From the NCBI GenBank assembly GCA_963664705.1, contig OY761556.1, positions 6,080,001 through 6,144,000 on the forward strand: 64,000 bases of DNA, in the 5' to 3' direction. Positions 3-7,536 of this stretch are shown here, piece by piece; the stretch's first letter is position 1; each line of letters starts with the position of its first letter. The notes under the pieces are model-generated. The model did no database searches. It saw only the letters and a list, made by a program, of their open reading frames with translations, and was not told the origin of the DNA. The stretch is from Acidobacteriota bacterium (lineage in GTDB: Bacteria > Acidobacteriota > UBA6911). A program made the translations under genes and the position numbers.

Positions 3-1118
3 TTCAACGAGCGCTATATTCTGGTGGCCAAAAACAACATGCAGGTAGCGGACGAGGTTTTCAGGCTTCAGCTGATCAACACTGTTGTTGCGGTTGAAAA
101 CGCTTATTGGGATTTGGCGGCTCTTCAAGAAAGTGTCCGTGTGGCAGAACAAGCACTGGCCGTTGCAGAGCAGCTTTATAAGGACAACAAGATAAAGCTT
201 GAAGTTGGAACGATGTCTCCGCTGGATGTGACGTCGGCCGAGTCTGAAGTTGCCTCCAGAACACGCGATCTGACTGTGGCTGCCACGAATGTGCAGTTCC
301 AGGAGGCCACTCTGAAAAACATGTTGGTAAAGAAAGTCGGAACCCAGTTGGATGCCGCGCGAATTATCCTGGCGGATCCAATGCCGGAACCTGCCGGTGG
401 ACATATTCCGGAGTTGCAGGCCGCTCTTGCCAATGCACTGGAAGCGAGACCGGAATTGCGACAAGCCAACGTCAATCTGCGGAATCAGGATATTTCCGTG
501 CGGTTTACCGAAAAAGCCCTTATGCCTGGGCTTTCGGTCTTTGGCTTTTATGCCGGATCCGGTCTGCAAGGTACCAGTAAAACGGCGAATTCAGGGTTGT
601 TGGATGCCATGGGGCAGAGCTTCACCAATACATACCCGGAGTATGCAACCGGGTTCAGCATGAGCATTCCTTTGCGCAACCGGACGGCACAGGCAGACAA
701 CCTGCGATCGCAGCTCGAGCGGAATCAACTGCTGATTACGCAACAGCGCACACGAAACACCGTAGCCATGGAAGTCCGCAAGGCCATTATAGGGTTGATG
801 CAGGGAAAGGCGCAGGTGGAAGCCTCACACAAAGCTTCATCGCTGGCCCGCGAAATGTGGGAGGGTGAAAAGAGCAAGCTGGAAGCGGGTGCGTCGACCT
901 CCTATCAGGTAATTTTGCGCGAGCGCGACCTGACATCGGCGCGGCAGGCGGAAGTGGCCGCCATGGTTACCTATGCAAAGGCGATCGTGGAAATGGACCG
1001 GTCCCGCGGCATTACACTGGATCGAAACGGAATTGATTACGGAGACGGATTGCGAGGAACTATTTCCAAGGCTCCGGTTACTCCGTTCACTCTGAGTGGA
1101 TCACGGGAGGGCAAGTAA
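3..1118 (+). CDS. TolC-family outer membrane efflux protein, 5'-truncated by window edge
   Basis: Frame is open from nt 3 (FNERYILVAKNN...). OEP-repeat motifs 'VENAYWDL...VRVAEQAL' and 'KLEAGASTSYQVI'. Paralogous to the next gene. Confidence 0.85.
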   Translation, partial: FNERYILVAKNNMQVADEVFRLQLINTVVAVENAYWDLAALQESVRVAEQALAVAEQLYKDNKIKLEVGTMSPLDVTSAESEVASRTRDLTVAATNVQFQEATLKNMLVKKVGTQLDAARIILADPMPEPAGGHIPELQAALANALEARPELRQANVNLRNQDISVRFTEKALMPGLSVFGFYAGSGLQGTSKTANSGLLDAMGQSFTNTYPEYATGFSMSIPLRNRTAQADNLRSQLERNQLLITQQRTRNTVAMEVRKAIIGLMQGKAQVEASHKASSLAREMWEGEKSKLEAGASTSYQVILRERDLTSARQAEVAAMVTYAKAIVEMDRSRGITLDRNGIDYGDGLRGTISKAPVTPFTLSGSREGK

Positions 1119-2962
1119 TGCGCGCTCCTGTCCGCAGTCGGAAAATAATTGCAGGCGGGATGAGGCTGAGCCGGGCGGCGATTCTTCTATTGAGTTTTGC
1201 CTCCGGTGCTTCCGCTCAGGGCTTTAAGGCAATGCCCGATCTCGGCCAGAATCCCGAGTGGTTCCCTCGGGTTTACAAGCCCTATGTATCCCAGAAGATC
1301 CCCAAGATGGATTTGGCCAATTCGCCAAGCCTGATGGATATGGTTCGTGATGGCAAGATCCGGATATCGTTGGCGCAATTGAGGACTTCGGTCAACGAGA
1401 ACAACCTGGACATTCTTTCCTCGCGAAACAGTTCATACTATGCCCAGACAGATATGCTGCGGGTCAATGGCGGCGGAGCCCCTCGTGGCGGCGCCGGCGT
1501 TACGATTCCGAGCAGCCTTTTTGCGGGCGCCATCGGTGCAGGTGTCGGCGGCGCCGGTGGGCTGGGAAGTTTCAGCGGTGTCGGCGGTATTACTGGCGGA
1601 GCAAGGCAGGTTTTTGGTGTTTCGCGCGGCAGCTATGATCCCTCTTTTGCGCTCGGTTTCAGCTATGATCGGACCAATAGCCCATTGAACTCGATCATTG
1701 TCTCGGGCCTGCCTGAAGTAACAACATCGTCCATGGCTTTGCAGACTCGATATTCTCAGGCATTCCCCATGGGGTCCAGCTTTAGTGTCGGCTTCAACAA
1801 CATGCGCCAGAAGACGAATCAATCGTTTCTTCGATACAATCCACTCGCCGTTTCACAGCTGACGGTCAGCCTGACCCAAAACCTGTTGAACGGGTTTGGA
1901 AACGCCATCGGCCGCCGCTTCATCACGGTTGGAAAAAACGAAGAGCGCATCATGAAGGAAATTGTTCGGCTGCAGGTGAACACGACGTTGGCCCAGGCTC
2001 AAAACACCTACTGGGATCTGGTCGCCGCCCGTGACAACGTTCGCGTCGCCACCCAGTCGCTCGCGGTCGCAAAGCAACTGCTCGAGAACAATAGAAAGAA
2101 AGAAGAGATCGGGACCGCCTCCGGCCTTGACGTGACCACCGCGGCGTCGGAAGTTGCCGCGCGCGAACGCGATCTGGTGACGGCACAGGCCGCGATGCAA
2201 ATGCGCGAAGTCGACCTGAAAAATGTAATCTCCAAAAACACCAGTGATTTGCTCGGATCAGTCCAGATTGAGCCCTCCGATGCCCTTCCCGATCCCAAGG
2301 ATAGTGATATCCCCAAAGTGACCGATGCACTCGACACTGCGATGCGAAACCGCTCTGAAATTACGCAGGCGGAAGTCAATCTGGAAACGCAGGATATCGC
2401 CATCAAGTATGAAAAGGATCTCCTCAAGCCCACGCTGCTTCTTTTTGCCAATTTCAACAGCTCCGGTCTCTATGGAGACCGGACCATCACGGATGCAAGC
2501 GGTGCCAGAGTGGTGCTTCCCGGGGGTGTTTGGGGCGCAATGGGCATGGTCAGGCGATGGACCTATCCAGAATATGCGGTAGGGTTCTCCTTTTCGCTGA
2601 ATATCAGAAATCGGGCGGCCGAGGCCGATATCTACCGGGCAAAACTGGAAAGGCAGCAGACTGTGATCAGCCTGCAGCGCACGCGCAACAGCATTGCCCT
2701 GGAAGTTCGAAAGGCGCTAATCGGATTGGTTCAGACCAAGGCCCAGGTGGAAGCCGCGCAGAAGGCGACAAAATTGACGGGCGAAATTCTCGCTGCGGAA
2801 GAGGCAAAGCTGCTGGAAGGTTCCTCGATCCCTTATGAGGTTATCCGGCGTCAGCGAGATTATCAGACCGCCCAGTTTGCCGAGGTTCAGACTCGTGCCA
2901 ACTATGCCAAAGCGCTTGTCGAAAGAGACCGGGCGCTGGGTGTGTTGGAGCCGAAGAAGTAG
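1118..2962 (+). CDS. TolC-family outer membrane protein with signal peptide and Gly-rich insert
   Basis: Signal peptide (...ASGASA|QG), two OEP repeats ('AQNTYWDLVAARDNVRVA', 'EEAKLLEGSSIPYEVI'). TAATG stop/start overlap with the upstream gene. Confidence 0.85.
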   Translation: MRAPVRSRKIIAGGMRLSRAAILLLSFASGASAQGFKAMPDLGQNPEWFPRVYKPYVSQKIPKMDLANSPSLMDMVRDGKIRISLAQLRTSVNENNLDILSSRNSSYYAQTDMLRVNGGGAPRGGAGVTIPSSLFAGAIGAGVGGAGGLGSFSGVGGITGGARQVFGVSRGSYDPSFALGFSYDRTNSPLNSIIVSGLPEVTTSSMALQTRYSQAFPMGSSFSVGFNNMRQKTNQSFLRYNPLAVSQLTVSLTQNLLNGFGNAIGRRFITVGKNEERIMKEIVRLQVNTTLAQAQNTYWDLVAARDNVRVATQSLAVAKQLLENNRKKEEIGTASGLDVTTAASEVAARERDLVTAQAAMQMREVDLKNVISKNTSDLLGSVQIEPSDALPDPKDSDIPKVTDALDTAMRNRSEITQAEVNLETQDIAIKYEKDLLKPTLLLFANFNSSGLYGDRTITDASGARVVLPGGVWGAMGMVRRWTYPEYAVGFSFSLNIRNRAAEADIYRAKLERQQTVISLQRTRNSIALEVRKALIGLVQTKAQVEAAQKATKLTGEILAAEEAKLLEGSSIPYEVIRRQRDYQTAQFAEVQTRANYAKALVERDRALGVLEPKK

Positions 2963-3022: not shown

Positions 3023-4588
3023 TCAGTTGGGTATGGTTTTCAAAAGCTTGTAGCGTATGCCATCCGCCAGCGCCAGGTAGCTTGCCTCCAGGATGTTTTC
3101 CGATACCCCCACCGTGGTCCAGCTTTCCTCTCCATCGCTTTGCTGAATGTGCACGCGCACTTTGGAGGCAGTCCCTCCTTCACCTTCCAGCACGCGCACT
3201 TTATAGTCGGTGAGATGCACGCCGCGCAGCGGTTCAAAGAATTGGTTCAGGGCGAGGCGCAGCGCCTTGTCCAGTGCATGGACCGGCCCGTCTCCTTCCG
3301 CAACCGTATGAACCGACCGGTCTCCTACGCGTATCTTGACTGTAGCTTCAGAGGTGACCTCGCCGGTTCGGTGCATGTCGGTGACGACGCGGAAATTGTC
3401 TATTTTGAAAAACTCCTTTTCGCCGTTCAGCGCGGTTTCCATCAGTACGCGGATGGAAGCTTCCGCCGCTTCAAACTCGTAGCCTTGGTTTTCCAGCTTT
3501 TTGATTCTGTTCAATGCCGGCCGGAGCTTTTCCTCCTGCTCGGCTATATCCATGCTCATTTCGGTGGCTTTGTAGAGGAGATTGCTTTTCCCGGATAATT
3601 CGGAAACCAGCACGCGCCGGGCATTGCCTACCAATTCAGGATCCATGTGTTCATAGGTCGCTGCATCGCGGATCACAGCGCTTACGTGGACGCCGCCCTT
3701 GTGTGCGAAGGCGCTTTCACCCACAAACGCGAGATTTTTGCGATGGGGCAGGTTTGCGATCTGGCTGACGAATCTCGATGTGCTGGTCAGGAATTTCAGA
3801 TGGTCCGCACCGACGGTGGTGTATCCCATTTTTGTTTCGAGATTCGGAATAATCGAGCAGAGGTTGGCATTGCCGCATCGCTCGCCATAGCCATTCATTG
3901 TCCCCTGCACTTGAACGATTCCGCATTCCACGGCGGCCAGTGAATTGGCAACCGCCAGTTCGGAATCGTTGTGGCAGTGGATCCCGAGCGGAAGCTGAAT
4001 TCCTTCCTGGACCCTGCGAATTGCGGCTTGAATCTGTGACGGCAGTCTTCCTCCATTTGTATCGCACAATGCGATGAGATCCGCTCCGCCCTCCGCCGCC
4101 GCGCGCAGAGTCTGCAGCGCGTACTCCGGATTCGCCGCAAACCCGTCAAAAAAATGCTCTGCGTCGTAGATTACTTCCCTGCCTTTGGATTTGAGGTAGG
4201 CAACCGAGCTTCTGATCAGATCGCAATTTTTCTGGAGGGGAATTCGCAAAGCGGTGTGTACGTGGAAATCCCACGATTTGCCGAAGATGGTCACCACCGG
4301 GCTTTCTGCGCGAAGAAGCGCTTGCAGATTCGAATCCTCTTCCGGGAGATTTTTGGCAAGCGCAGTGCTGCCGAAGGCCGAAATTTTTGCATGCCGCCAG
4401 TTCTGAGAAGCAGCGCGACGGAAAAATTCCGCATCCTTCTCATTTGATCCCGGCCATCCTCCCTCGATGTAGTCCACGCCGAACTCATCCAGTTTTTGGG
4501 CAACCCGGAGCTTATCGTGTACCGAAAAGGCGACGCTTTCTCCCTGCGTTCCATCCCGCAGTGTAGTGTCATATATCTGTATCTTCAT
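3023..4588 (-). CDS. cimA: Citramalate synthase (LeuA/CimA family, bacterial CimA type)
   Basis: N-terminus 'IYDTTLRDGTQGE', 'IEGGWPGSN', 'YDAEHFFDG', 'HCHND', 'GYGERCGNANL', 'AFAHKGGVH', plus a C-terminal regulatory domain. ATG at 4588 has a purine-rich RBS (GAAAGGGA). Confidence 0.9.
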   Translation of the reverse strand: MKIQIYDTTLRDGTQGESVAFSVHDKLRVAQKLDEFGVDYIEGGWPGSNEKDAEFFRRAASQNWRHAKISAFGSTALAKNLPEEDSNLQALLRAESPVVTIFGKSWDFHVHTALRIPLQKNCDLIRSSVAYLKSKGREVIYDAEHFFDGFAANPEYALQTLRAAAEGGADLIALCDTNGGRLPSQIQAAIRRVQEGIQLPLGIHCHNDSELAVANSLAAVECGIVQVQGTMNGYGERCGNANLCSIIPNLETKMGYTTVGADHLKFLTSTSRFVSQIANLPHRKNLAFVGESAFAHKGGVHVSAVIRDAATYEHMDPELVGNARRVLVSELSGKSNLLYKATEMSMDIAEQEEKLRPALNRIKKLENQGYEFEAAEASIRVLMETALNGEKEFFKIDNFRVVTDMHRTGEVTSEATVKIRVGDRSVHTVAEGDGPVHALDKALRLALNQFFEPLRGVHLTDYKVRVLEGEGGTASKVRVHIQQSDGEESWTTVGVSENILEASYLALADGIRYKLLKTIPN

Positions 4589-4610: not shown

Positions 4611-4645
4611 AAAAAAGCCCTCACCCGTTTTGCGGATGAGGGCTT
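4611..4645 (-). terminator. Intrinsic attenuator terminator upstream of cimA
   Basis: Minus strand reads AAGCCCTCATCCG-CAAAA-CGGGTGAGGGCTT-TTTT, a GC stem followed by a U tract, 22 nt before the cimA start. Confidence 0.85.
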
Positions 4646-4670
4646 GGTGCATGCACCTTTTTGCAGGCCT

Positions 4671-4745
4671 CTATCCGCCGGGCGATATCCCGGTAATCAT
4701 AATAATGGCGATGCTGATGATGTTGGCACTAGTGCGCTGAATCAT
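4671..4745 (-). CDS. Ile-rich attenuator leader peptide (24 aa, MIQRTSANIISIAIIMITGISPGG)
   Basis: Translated by hand: 8 Ile codons in 24. GAGGA lies just upstream. The stop codon overlaps GCGGATAGAGGC, which can pair with the 5' arm of the terminator. Confidence 0.8.
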   Translation of the reverse strand: MIQRTSANIISIAIIMITGISPGG

Positions 4746-4804
4746 AAATCCTCAGGTCGGTACATTGCCACATCCCCCTGGTAATGTAAACAGGAAAGAA
4801 GGAA

Positions 4805-4931
4805 GGAGACAGGAGTCAGGAGACAGGAGACAGGAGACAGAATGAAGCTCATCTGTCCGGATGCATTATCGGCTGGCTTCATTTTCGACTTCCAATATCT
4901 TCCTGTCTCCTGACTTCTGTCTCCTGTCTCC
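4805..4931. repeat. Inverted pair of heptamer tandem arrays
   Basis: (GGAGACA/GGAGTCA)x5 at 4805-4839 and the complementary (TCCTGTC/TCCTGAC/TTCTGTC)x4 at 4901-4931. Confidence 0.8.
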
Positions 4932-5070
4932 TTCTTCCTTTTCTCTTGACAAATCCGGCACATTCCAGAAACTGGAGCCATCGGCCCGCGTTCTCCCGGC
5001 CGAGCGATCTTATCTTTAAAAAATTTGTTCTGCGATGTCGCCCATCACCTCGGGTGAGGAGGGATAGAAT

Positions 5071-7536
5071 ATGGCAGATGCCCAACCGTTCCAACCCTGG
5101 ACCTGGAGAGTTCCGGAGGGTGATGCGGACGTGCGCCGCAACATGCCCCGGCAGGATGCATACGAAAGAGTCAGCGGAGAAGCCATCTATACGAGGGACG
5201 TGCATTTGCCCGGGATGCTTTGCGCGAAAGCGCTGACGTCTCCTTTCGCTCACGCAAAAATTAGGAACATGGATATCCGAAATGCCGAGGCCATGAACGG
5301 CGTCAGGGACATACTCCGGTATGATGATCCGGATATATCCATCGACAATGTCACCGGGTGTTCCAGCGGCAACAAATACAATATCCTGACGCTGCCGGGT
5401 GTGGCTGATTTTTATCAGCACCCGATGGGCGCGGCGGTGGTGGCCGATTCGGAGGAGGTGTGCGATCGAGCCCTGCGTGCAATCAAGATTGAGTGGGAGG
5501 AATGCCCATTCGTGCTGGATATGGAGGAATCGCTTAAGCCGGATGCTCCGAGGATAATGCCCGAGGTCAGACGCCTGGATCCGACGGCCAGGGAACCGAA
5601 TACCGTATATACCGAATCCGCGGAAATCGGCGATGTGGAAAAAGGATTTGCAGAGGCCGACCGCGTTATCGAGTATAGGTTCAAGCGGGCCATCAATTCT
5701 CCTGCCGGTGTTGAGCCGATGGTCTGTATCGCTCAATGGCGTGGCGATTTCCTGGATCTCTACCTGCATCATCAGCATGACATGACGGAAACCATTGGTT
5801 CCGAGAGCACCCCCTCCATTGCATGGGACCTTCTTGGTCGTGATGAGGCCTCCAGGCCAAAAGTAGATCCCAACTACCGACCCACTCGTCGGGAGGAGCC
5901 GCATCCGATGCTGGCTCACTGGACCAAAATCACACTGGTCTATCCATTTCAGGGATCGGTGTTTGGCGGGTTGTCGTGGCTTGCCTATTCCTACAGTTTT
6001 ATACGGCTGGCGGTGAAATTGGCCAAAAGGGCTGGTGGGCGCCCCGTGAAGCTTCTGTATGATGAGAGCAGTTTTTATTGCGGGGGAGACGAATCCGGGA
6101 CGTACACCTGCAAGGTCGGGGCAAAAAAGGACGGCACCATTACAGCGTATCACTGGAATATGGTTGGCGTACGGAATCCCGCAAAGGACAAAACTCCGGA
6201 ATGCACCACCATTCGCAATGTGAAGGGTTCGCAGCAATGGGCTTTTACCAACCGGGGATTTGTTGAGAGCTTCCGGCATGGTGCTCCGGCTTGTGTGCCG
6301 CACAACATCATGTTCGACCGTGTGGCTGCCGAATTCGGACTCGATCCGACAGAGGTGGCCTTGAAAAATGACGGCTGCGACGGACATCCGTGGGATTGGG
6401 TCACTCAATATCAGAAGGCGAATGGATTTCCGCAGAGGCATAGTCTCAAAGAAGTCATTGATCGCGGCAAAGCAGCTATTGGCTGGGATCAGAAATGGCA
6501 TCTTCCAGGCAAAAAGAGGCTTTCCAATAACAGGATGCACGGGCTCGGTTTTATGTCTATTAACGAGTGGGGTGCCGGGCTTCGTGGAATTCTGGCCGCC
6601 GGGTATTCCTGCGTCATGCTGCGCAATGGAAAGGCCGCGATCATCGGGATGCGCTGCGATCCGGGAGTTGATACCGAATCCGGGTTTCGTCGTTGTGTTG
6701 CTTCGGAATTGGGCCTTCGGTTTGAAGACACGGTGATACAGGAGCGTCGTTCCGACAATAACGTATTTCACTTTGCCGAGCCTGGAGGATCGTACGGAAC
6801 CATCAGCACTACGCCGCAGCTGATTTTTGCGGCAAGGCAATTGAAAAAGAAAATACTGCTGCAGGCGGTAACCTCCAGGGAAAGAGAAGCTCCGTTCTTT
6901 CCAGGGAAGAGGCCGGAGGATCTGGAAGTCAGAGATAGCAAAGTTTTTGAAAAGGCTAATCCAAAGAACAGCAGAGATATTGGCGAGATTGCCAACGCAT
7001 TCTGGGAAGACGATCCCGCAATAGCGCACCCGGCAATTCCCAGCCTCGCCGGATTAACGTCCGATGGGAAACCCGATTCCCGAGTGTACATGATGTCGCG
7101 GCAGGCGCACTTTATCGAAATTGAAATCGACCCTGAAACCGGTGAGATCGAATTCGATAACATCGTTTGCGTCAATGATGTGGGGCACGTCTTTAATGCG
7201 CGTGGAGCCGAAGGTCAGCAATATGGCGGCGCATATATGGCCCTGGGTCGAAATAAGAGCGAGGAAAAAATCTGCTGTCCGAGGACCGGCGTTGGCCTCA
7301 ATTATGATCACATTGGCTATCAGCTTGGAACCATGAATGACTATCCCGTCATCCAGTGTCTCCTGAATGAGAGCCATCTTGGATACTCCGCTTACGGTGC
7401 GTGCGGCATTGGAGAGAATATCGGCGCTGCAATGTCTGCAATTCTTGGTGGCGCAGTCTACAATGCGATAGGAAAGTGGATATATGATTTCCCGATTACG
7501 CCGGATAAAGTTCTCAAGACGCTGGGCGTGATCTGA
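5071..7536 (+). CDS. Xanthine dehydrogenase-family molybdopterin-binding (large) subunit, divergent
   Basis: 'RVSGEAIYTRDVHLPGML', 'SPFAHAKI', 'GDVEKGFAEAD', 'EIEIDPETGEI', 'NDVGHVFN', 'GACGIGE', 'PITPDKVL'. Confidence 0.85.
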   Translation: MADAQPFQPWTWRVPEGDADVRRNMPRQDAYERVSGEAIYTRDVHLPGMLCAKALTSPFAHAKIRNMDIRNAEAMNGVRDILRYDDPDISIDNVTGCSSGNKYNILTLPGVADFYQHPMGAAVVADSEEVCDRALRAIKIEWEECPFVLDMEESLKPDAPRIMPEVRRLDPTAREPNTVYTESAEIGDVEKGFAEADRVIEYRFKRAINSPAGVEPMVCIAQWRGDFLDLYLHHQHDMTETIGSESTPSIAWDLLGRDEASRPKVDPNYRPTRREEPHPMLAHWTKITLVYPFQGSVFGGLSWLAYSYSFIRLAVKLAKRAGGRPVKLLYDESSFYCGGDESGTYTCKVGAKKDGTITAYHWNMVGVRNPAKDKTPECTTIRNVKGSQQWAFTNRGFVESFRHGAPACVPHNIMFDRVAAEFGLDPTEVALKNDGCDGHPWDWVTQYQKANGFPQRHSLKEVIDRGKAAIGWDQKWHLPGKKRLSNNRMHGLGFMSINEWGAGLRGILAAGYSCVMLRNGKAAIIGMRCDPGVDTESGFRRCVASELGLRFEDTVIQERRSDNNVFHFAEPGGSYGTISTTPQLIFAARQLKKKILLQAVTSREREAPFFPGKRPEDLEVRDSKVFEKANPKNSRDIGEIANAFWEDDPAIAHPAIPSLAGLTSDGKPDSRVYMMSRQAHFIEIEIDPETGEIEFDNIVCVNDVGHVFNARGAEGQQYGGAYMALGRNKSEEKICCPRTGVGLNYDHIGYQLGTMNDYPVIQCLLNESHLGYSAYGACGIGENIGAAMSAILGGAVYNAIGKWIYDFPITPDKVLKTLGVI

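Follow-up and report, generated by a model that had tools for sequence, protein, structure and literature searches.

A candidate isoleucine-specific transcription attenuator preceding the citramalate synthase gene cimA in Acidobacteriota

Characterized citramalate synthases (CimA) are inhibited by isoleucine, and cimA of Leptospira is Ile-repressed. The classical attenuators of enterobacteria are thrL (Thr and Ile), ilvL of ilvGMEDA (Ile, Val and Leu), ivbL, leuL, hisL, pheL and trpL. The region upstream of cimA in the Acidobacteriota bacterium studied here resembles these systems in having a short ORF in which regulatory codons are clustered, segments predicted to pair as 1:2, 2:3 and 3:4, and an intrinsic terminator immediately ahead of the first gene of the pathway. 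It differs from them in its target (cimA), in its host phylum, in belonging to no Rfam family, and in that the leader's stop codon lies inside the antiterminator strand.

Outside enterobacteria, a branched-chain-rich uORF combined with terminator and antiterminator stems is described in PMC10272879 for Corynebacterium ilvB-II and for the ilvB-OMG and Leptospira ilvB motifs. These resemble the cimA leader in their branched-chain uORF, but they are multivalent (Ile/Leu/Val, some also Thr) and precede ilvB (PMC10272879); their counterpart in the present genome is the ilvN leader treated below and not the cimA leader. The leu/phe leader of Lactococcus lactis (RF01743), in which copies of one scaffold are reported to carry different regulatory codons, provides a precedent for the Ile/Phe pair described below (PMC2864571); it belongs, however, to a different phylum, has a different sequence, and pairs Leu rather than Ile with Phe, and no RF01743 match was obtained in the Rfam search. 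The actinobacterial LEU element before leuA (PMC1262725) shares with the cimA leader an ORF containing a run of cognate codons ahead of a gene of the isopropylmalate/citramalate synthase family, but LEU elements lack a terminator and base-pair with the ribosome-binding site instead, whereas the cimA leader has a full intrinsic terminator. In the part of PMC4833913 considered here, Acidobacteria appear only in leader-gene distance statistics, and citramalate is not mentioned. No Rfam family reached its gathering threshold, the best match to a leader family being His_leader (RF00514; 29.5 versus 49 bits). No description of a cimA leader was found in the literature searched; the surveys by Lyubetsky reportedly may list Ile leaders under "leuA". 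The mechanism considered here is textbook; what appears to be new is its target, cimA, its apparent response to Ile alone, in Acidobacteriota, and a Phe paralogue before pheA.

The features of the locus are given in Table 1, with coordinates referring to the 64,000-nt stretch of DNA that was analysed (the window).

Table 1. Features of the cimA locus in the window.
Feature	Coordinates	Strand	Remarks
cimA, citramalate synthase, 521 aa	3023..4588	(-)	ATG at 4588; TIGR00977; HMGL-like, HCS_D2 and LeuA_dimer domains
Segment 4, terminator 3′ arm and U tract	4611..4627	(-)	13-pair helix with segment 3
Segment 3, terminator 5′ arm	4632..4645	(-)	common to terminator and antiterminator
Small internal hairpin GGTG-CATG-CACC	4646..4657	(-)	between segments 2 and 3; 4 pairs
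Segment 2, antiterminator 5′ strand GCGGATAGAGGC	4667..4678	(-)	contains the leader stop codon; 11-pair helix with segment 3
Leader ORF	4671..4745	(-)	24 codons, 8 Ile; ATG start; ends Pro-Gly-Gly-stop
Hairpin CCGGG-N6-CCCGG, possible pause hairpin	4678..4693	(-)	within the end of the leader ORF; 5 pairs
Segment 1, protector strand	4701..4709	(-)	Ala-Ile-Ile codons; pairs with 4675-4667; RNAalifold consensus columns 13-21 with 47-55
Possible ribosome-binding site GAGGA	4749..4753	(-)	3 nt 5′ of the leader ATG; from sequence
Predicted extended -10 TG-G-CAATGT	4762..4770	(-)	TG(G/A)CA..T conserved in 22/23 homologues
Predicted -35 hexamer TTTACA	4785..4790	(-)	TTTACA, TTGCAA or TTTGCA in 22/23 homologues

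The protein encoded downstream of the leader scored 733 bits against TIGR00977 (cut-off 450) and missed every LeuA model (222-303 versus cut-offs of 517-748). The same genome encodes a separate LeuA (TIGR00973; 729 versus a cut-off of 599) and a NifV-like protein scoring just under its cut-off, and none of its six PALP-family matches (CysK twice, a CysM-like protein, TrpB, a TrpB-like protein and ThrC) is a threonine dehydratase (IlvA). The sequence-only reading had drawn on the leader to prefer CimA over LeuA; the assignment holds independently of the leader. The protein is thus CimA by profile, its enzymatic activity being predicted. According to PMC7476758, the threonine-independent route to 2-oxobutanoate and Ile begins with the formation of citramalate by CimA, and other anaerobic routes to 2-oxobutanoate exist. 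At E 1e-40, TIGR01127 matched in none of 30 genomes of the genus; matches below the cut-off were present in 20 of 21 family genomes of other genera. As no ilvA was found in the 30 genus genomes, it is likely that this genus obtains 2-oxobutanoate mainly by the citramalate route. The cimA gene is likely monocistronic, the next gene being convergent and ending at 2962. This gene, the second of two adjacent ORFs at 24-2962 (+), encodes an outer-membrane efflux protein (PF02321), and no intrinsic terminator was found between it and cimA. On the other side, divergent from cimA, lies a gene for a molybdopterin subunit of the xanthine dehydrogenase family (5071-7536, +). Genome-wide, the ARAGORN predictions include three tRNA-Cys genes and, called as SeC, three tRNAs whose anticodon is TCA.

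The 24-aa minus-strand ORF with eight Ile codons and neither Leu nor Val codons that the sequence-only reading had placed before cimA was recovered at 4745-4671. Its product, MIQRTSANIISIAIIMITGISPGG, has no match in Pfam, and the Ile codons comprise four ATT, three ATC and one ATA. At the genomic Ile frequency of 6.2% (taken from stop-to-stop frames of at least 300 codons), the probability of finding at least eight Ile in the 23 codons of the leader is 4.6e-5. Of 235 terminators genome-wide, the one before cimA was alone in having a short, Ile-rich ORF in front of it by the rules of the scan, which was not exhaustive, as these rules passed over the ilvN leader.

The leader DNA matched 22 of the 30 genus genomes (own genome counted), and 21 of these matches directly precede cimA, the remaining one lying at a contig end. 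Seven of the eight genomes without a leader match (all but G041) were examined for cimA: five also lack a cimA match, and in two cimA is cut by a contig end. Together with L035, the 22 matches constitute the 23 distinct homologues that were aligned (82% mean column identity); L031, with a leader identical to that of L116, and L032 and L033, with the same leaders as L128 and L131, had been dropped before counting. Every homologue (23/23) has kept an in-frame ATG-to-stop ORF of 19-28 codons that ends in Pro-Gly-Gly-stop. The leader stop is 57 nt from the terminator U-tract in the own genome, and 57-62 nt separate it from the U-tract end across the 23 homologues. The ribosome-binding sites of the leaders are variable, and in several of them short-spaced or missing.

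The 520 residues encoded by the 23 leaders comprise 26.5% Ile, 9.0% Thr, 2.1% Val and 1.0% Leu, with Ile codons conserved at positions -13 from the stop (23/23), -8 (96%), -11 (91%) and -10 (78%). The enrichment is sharper within codons -16 to -8, a sensor window picked after the Ile profile had been seen: in 31 leaders, 156 of these 279 codons specify Ile (55.9%), 13 Thr (4.7%, versus a background of 4.9%), 8 Val (2.9%) and 2 Leu (0.7%), and the Ile at -8 is encoded by ATT, ATC or ATA. With Thr at background, co-sensing of Thr as in thrL was rejected, and the values for Val and Leu led to the rejection of a multivalent Ile/Val/Leu leader of the ilvL type. Unlike thrL and ilvL, the cimA leader would therefore sense Ile alone; that CimA serves only Ile accounts for such monovalency.

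A strong terminator just before cimA had also been claimed, and a 13-pair stem (4645-4615; 8 G-C pairs) followed by a T run to 4611 is present. The scan yielded two terminator-like sites compared with 0.9 ± 1.1 in shuffled sequences, a count that is not significant alone, and over the full 201 nt the predicted fold is only modestly more stable than in shuffled sequences (z -1.85; 11 of 200 as good). As had been proposed for the segment around the leader stop codon, GCGGATAGAGGC (4678-4667) can pair with GCCCTCATCCGC (4643-4632) in the 5′ arm of the terminator (-16.7 kcal/mol), and the helix is conserved and shows two-sided changes. Compared with all 235 terminators of the genome, the upstream partner of the cimA terminator 5′ arm is the second strongest (-16.4 versus a median of -9.0 kcal/mol). 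The original parts list was thus correct as to ORF, antiterminator and terminator, but had missed the conserved promoter-like element at 4790-4762, the protector helix (4709-4701 paired with 4675-4667) and a further hairpin (4693-4678).

The terminator is present in all 23 aligned homologues, and the RNAalifold consensus consists of the protector helix, the 5-pair hairpin, the 4-pair internal hairpin and the terminator. In the terminator helix, 96.6% of the cells are paired and two pairs have changed on both sides; for the 11-pair helix between segments 2 and 3, the corresponding values are 94.8% and three. The 5-pair hairpin (96.5% of cells paired, probability above 0.5 in 23/23) shows no compensatory change, the internal hairpin (94.6%) a single one. 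As complete structures, the terminator (96.2% of cells paired, three pairs with two-sided changes) and the antiterminator (94.8%, four pairs) each exceeded 500 of 500 shuffles both in pairing and in two-sided changes, and both also exceeded all slid controls in pairing. In L132, columns 52, 83 and 101 have changed together, so that antiterminator and terminator are both kept; in L131, columns 48 and 86 have changed while column 98 still pairs, again with both helices kept. The covariation behind the two helices is nevertheless thin, as the events are few and the genomes kin: own and swapped pairs of segments 2 and 3 differ little in stability (-16.31 versus -16.05; 224 of 5,000 permutations as good), and a second antiterminator register did not beat shuffles (135/500).

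The protector helix appears weak. Before segment 3 is made, its predicted probability is 0.95 in the window but above 0.5 in only 11 of the 23 homologues, and in ribosome-free truncated RNA the antiterminator is favored over the protector at equilibrium in 17 of 23 leaders, which makes the default state of an untranslated leader uncertain. To place a ribosome on the 23 leaders in silico, a footprint reaching 9 nt past the A-site codon was assumed and the bases up to that point were masked. The mean antiterminator probability was 0.96-0.98 with the A-site at codons -13 to -6, dropped to 0.70 at -5, and was 0 for every position between -4 and the stop. In this model, codon placement is that of classical attenuator geometry, although the drop is a direct consequence of the masking. 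With a stalled ribosome, the full-length RNA reached -40.2 kcal/mol in the terminator fold, versus -25.9 kcal/mol for the shorter transcript folded into the antiterminator, and at equilibrium 22 of 23 leaders favor the terminator. Because the full-length RNA prefers the terminator at equilibrium, read-through must be kinetic, and we infer that the antiterminator forms first.

Taken together, the conserved Ile-codon leader, the alternative helices and the terminator very probably constitute a ribosome-operated transcription attenuator of cimA, which would be on when charged Ile-tRNA is scarce. Transcription would start ∼10 nt before the leader ATG. When Ile is plentiful, the ribosome would reach the stop codon and cover segment 2, segments 3 and 4 would pair, and RNA polymerase would stop at 4616-4611. 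When Ile is scarce, the ribosome would stall on Ile codons 8-16 codons before the stop, covering segment 1 and leaving segment 2 free, which could then capture segment 3 while segment 4 has yet to be transcribed, and RNA polymerase would continue into cimA.

Upstream of the leader, 22 of the 23 distinct homologues have a -35 variant (TTTACA, TTGCAA or TTTGCA) at a distance of 17-18 nt ahead of the -10-like element. A consensus scan called no promoter at the cimA leader, and the promoter is predicted from conservation alone. Reading the TGGCA motif as a sigma-54 element was rejected by eye, as no TTGC occurs at the right spacing. The region between the divergent cimA and molybdopterin-oxidoreductase genes also harbors an inverted repeat (4785-4951) with 51-nt arms, 84% complementary and built of 7-nt units of the CAGGAGA type, which recurs as 101 BLAST pieces across the own genome; its two arm ends form outward-facing -35-like hexamers, TTTACA toward cimA and TTGACA at 4946-4951. 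Different inverted repeats occupy the same place in G014 and G001. Sub-threshold Rfam matches to microRNA families stem from this repeat, which is unrelated to the leader, and were discarded. In L011 (G001), the promoter and first part of the leader are present twice (1839-1927 and 2062-2150; 94% identical, 223 nt apart), and the upstream copy adjoins a run of N, which points to either a duplication or an assembly artefact.

Other explanations for this arrangement were considered. The translated leader could gate the terminator while sensing the general rate or coupling of translation, or a pause at Pro-Gly-Gly-stop, with the Ile codons being kept for the protector helix. Codons -13 to -10 do pair with segment 2, the codon at -11 is close to being fixed as ATT (22 of 31 leaders), and the Pro-Gly-Gly-stop end is nearly invariant. 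The Streptomyces ilvB leader, for which PMC1262725 reports that changing the candidate regulatory codons had no effect, sets a precedent: attenuator anatomy can mislead, which keeps the alternatives alive at low odds. Yet Ile also occurs at -16, -15, -9 and -8, that is, outside or at the edge of the protector, and with synonymous variation; paralogous cassettes switch their codons to suit the gene (Phe before pheA, Ile/Val/Leu before ilvN), and the sequence CCC GGC GGA is accounted for by RNA pairing. Sensing of translation as such is thus improbable.

Still less probable is a leader that binds a ligand or a protein (riboswitch-like, T-box-like, or controlled by protein-dependent antitermination) and contains the ORF only incidentally: an open ATG-to-stop frame of variable length would hardly be kept in 23 of 23 homologues, and the stop codon lies inside the antiterminator strand. 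The strong nucleotide conservation, which would be expected of such a leader as would its weak ribosome-binding sites, concerns bases that are nearly all paired, and no riboswitch or T-box was matched in Rfam. A constitutively leaky terminator combined with a small hydrophobic peptide having a function of its own is credited with equally slight odds. It would agree with the hydrophobic core of the peptide and with the equilibrium dominance of the terminator; that core, however, tolerates only Ile and not Leu, Val or Phe, the N-terminus of the peptide is not conserved, the stop codon keeps its distance to the U-tract end, and the antiterminator is conserved.

The proposed Ile attenuator also gains from its distribution. 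Nine family genomes of other genera have a cimA match, and in eight of them a covariance model of the leader found the element before cimA; in the ninth, a divergent cimA lies inside an operon. Genus and family taken together, the arrangement is present in this bacterium and 29 relatives. Comparing the upstream regions of cimA orthologues thus revealed ORF, antiterminator and terminator conserved together in genus and family, which supports the Ile attenuator as first proposed. The model gave no true match outside the family; those in G095 (another family, E 0.002) and G121 were dismissed as plain terminators. The closest named relatives are Acidobacteriota, and among 80 cimA-type loci, four from close Acidobacteriota relatives contain the element. 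Six distant ones have a candidate Ile-containing leader of other sequence, and at the remaining loci no credible leader was found within 500 nt, often as cimA lies inside an operon. Within these six (L077, L100 and L109 from Desulfobacterota, and L047, L060 and L104), three feature an Ile run, then a Leu run and a strong terminator; the other three have Ile-rich ORFs that differ in sequence.

Sister families likewise have Ile-rich ORFs of a different sequence ahead of cimA, but these are not followed by a U-tract terminator: in f8 they occur in 10 of 12 genomes (L019, L021, L148, L150-L154, L156 and L182), in f10, more weakly, in 5 of 8 (L169, L172, L173, L181 and L183), and in f20 in the one genome examined (L168). 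The ORFs lie at a distance of 90-280 nt from cimA, and a hairpin around TAGCGGA accompanies many of them. Their output may be translational or Rho-dependent, and they may be closer to the LEU-element type.

Weaker matches of the covariance model uncovered two related attenuators, one before ilvN (14 matches, in 14 family genomes) and one before pheA (7 matches). In the same -16 to -8 window, the 14 ilvN leaders contain 30% Ile, 22% Val and 21% Leu codons; this paralogous leader serves as an internal control for the Ile specificity suggested for the cimA leader. The copy in the own genome (G000:C1:3930386-3930495; L276) contains Ile, Val and Leu codons, ends in Arg-Phe-Gly-stop and precedes ilvN-ilvB. 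In seven family genomes (G119, G120, G116, G118, G114, G108 and G125; loci L213, L214, L216, L220, L227, L231 and L245, respectively), belonging to genera g24 and g19, a homologous cassette with Phe codons (36.5% Phe) precedes the gene for chorismate mutase/prephenate dehydratase (pheA). It shares with the cimA cassette the terminator, an end in Pro-Gly-Gly/Glu-stop and the promoter-like element, in which TGGCAGACT takes the position of the -10 element of the cimA leader. G116 has both the Ile (cimA) and the Phe (pheA) version, and in G119 ∼700 nt lie between the terminator of the Phe cassette and the gene. No Phe leader was found before pheA at 24 loci of genus g1, two of them short of upstream DNA.

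Two more leaders of the own genome were read by eye. A 20-codon ORF ending in a Leu run is located ∼160-100 nt upstream of leuA (G000:C1, 1280235; L274), with no U-tract terminator detected after it, and control similar to that by LEU elements is possible. At G000:C1:630383 (L278), a Trp-rich short ORF and a terminator precede a trpE-like gene, with trpB ∼4 kb downstream. Judged from codon content, the identity of the leader codons tracks the pathway product: Ile for cimA, Leu for leuA, Ile/Val/Leu for ilvN, and Phe for pheA.

One promoter-leader-attenuator cassette may well have been duplicated in this family and retuned between Ile and Phe by single-base swaps (AUU/AUC versus UUU/UUC), the Ile/Val/Leu leader of ilvN being a distant third copy and the Ile sensor of the sister families driving an output without a U-tract terminator; on balance, this scenario is moderately favored. 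The codons of such leaders offer a codon-level check on gene annotation, and the monovalent cimA leader is a compact candidate sensor of Ile-tRNA that is testable in E. coli, while codon swaps within the Ile/Phe paralogue pair offer a way to test how attenuator specificity evolves. For a little-studied phylum, a candidate regulator can now be assigned to the citramalate route. If the duplication scenario is true, the family would contain a natural series of attenuators changing specificity and output, and it would have been threonine-independent synthesis of Ile that made a purely Ile-specific attenuator possible.
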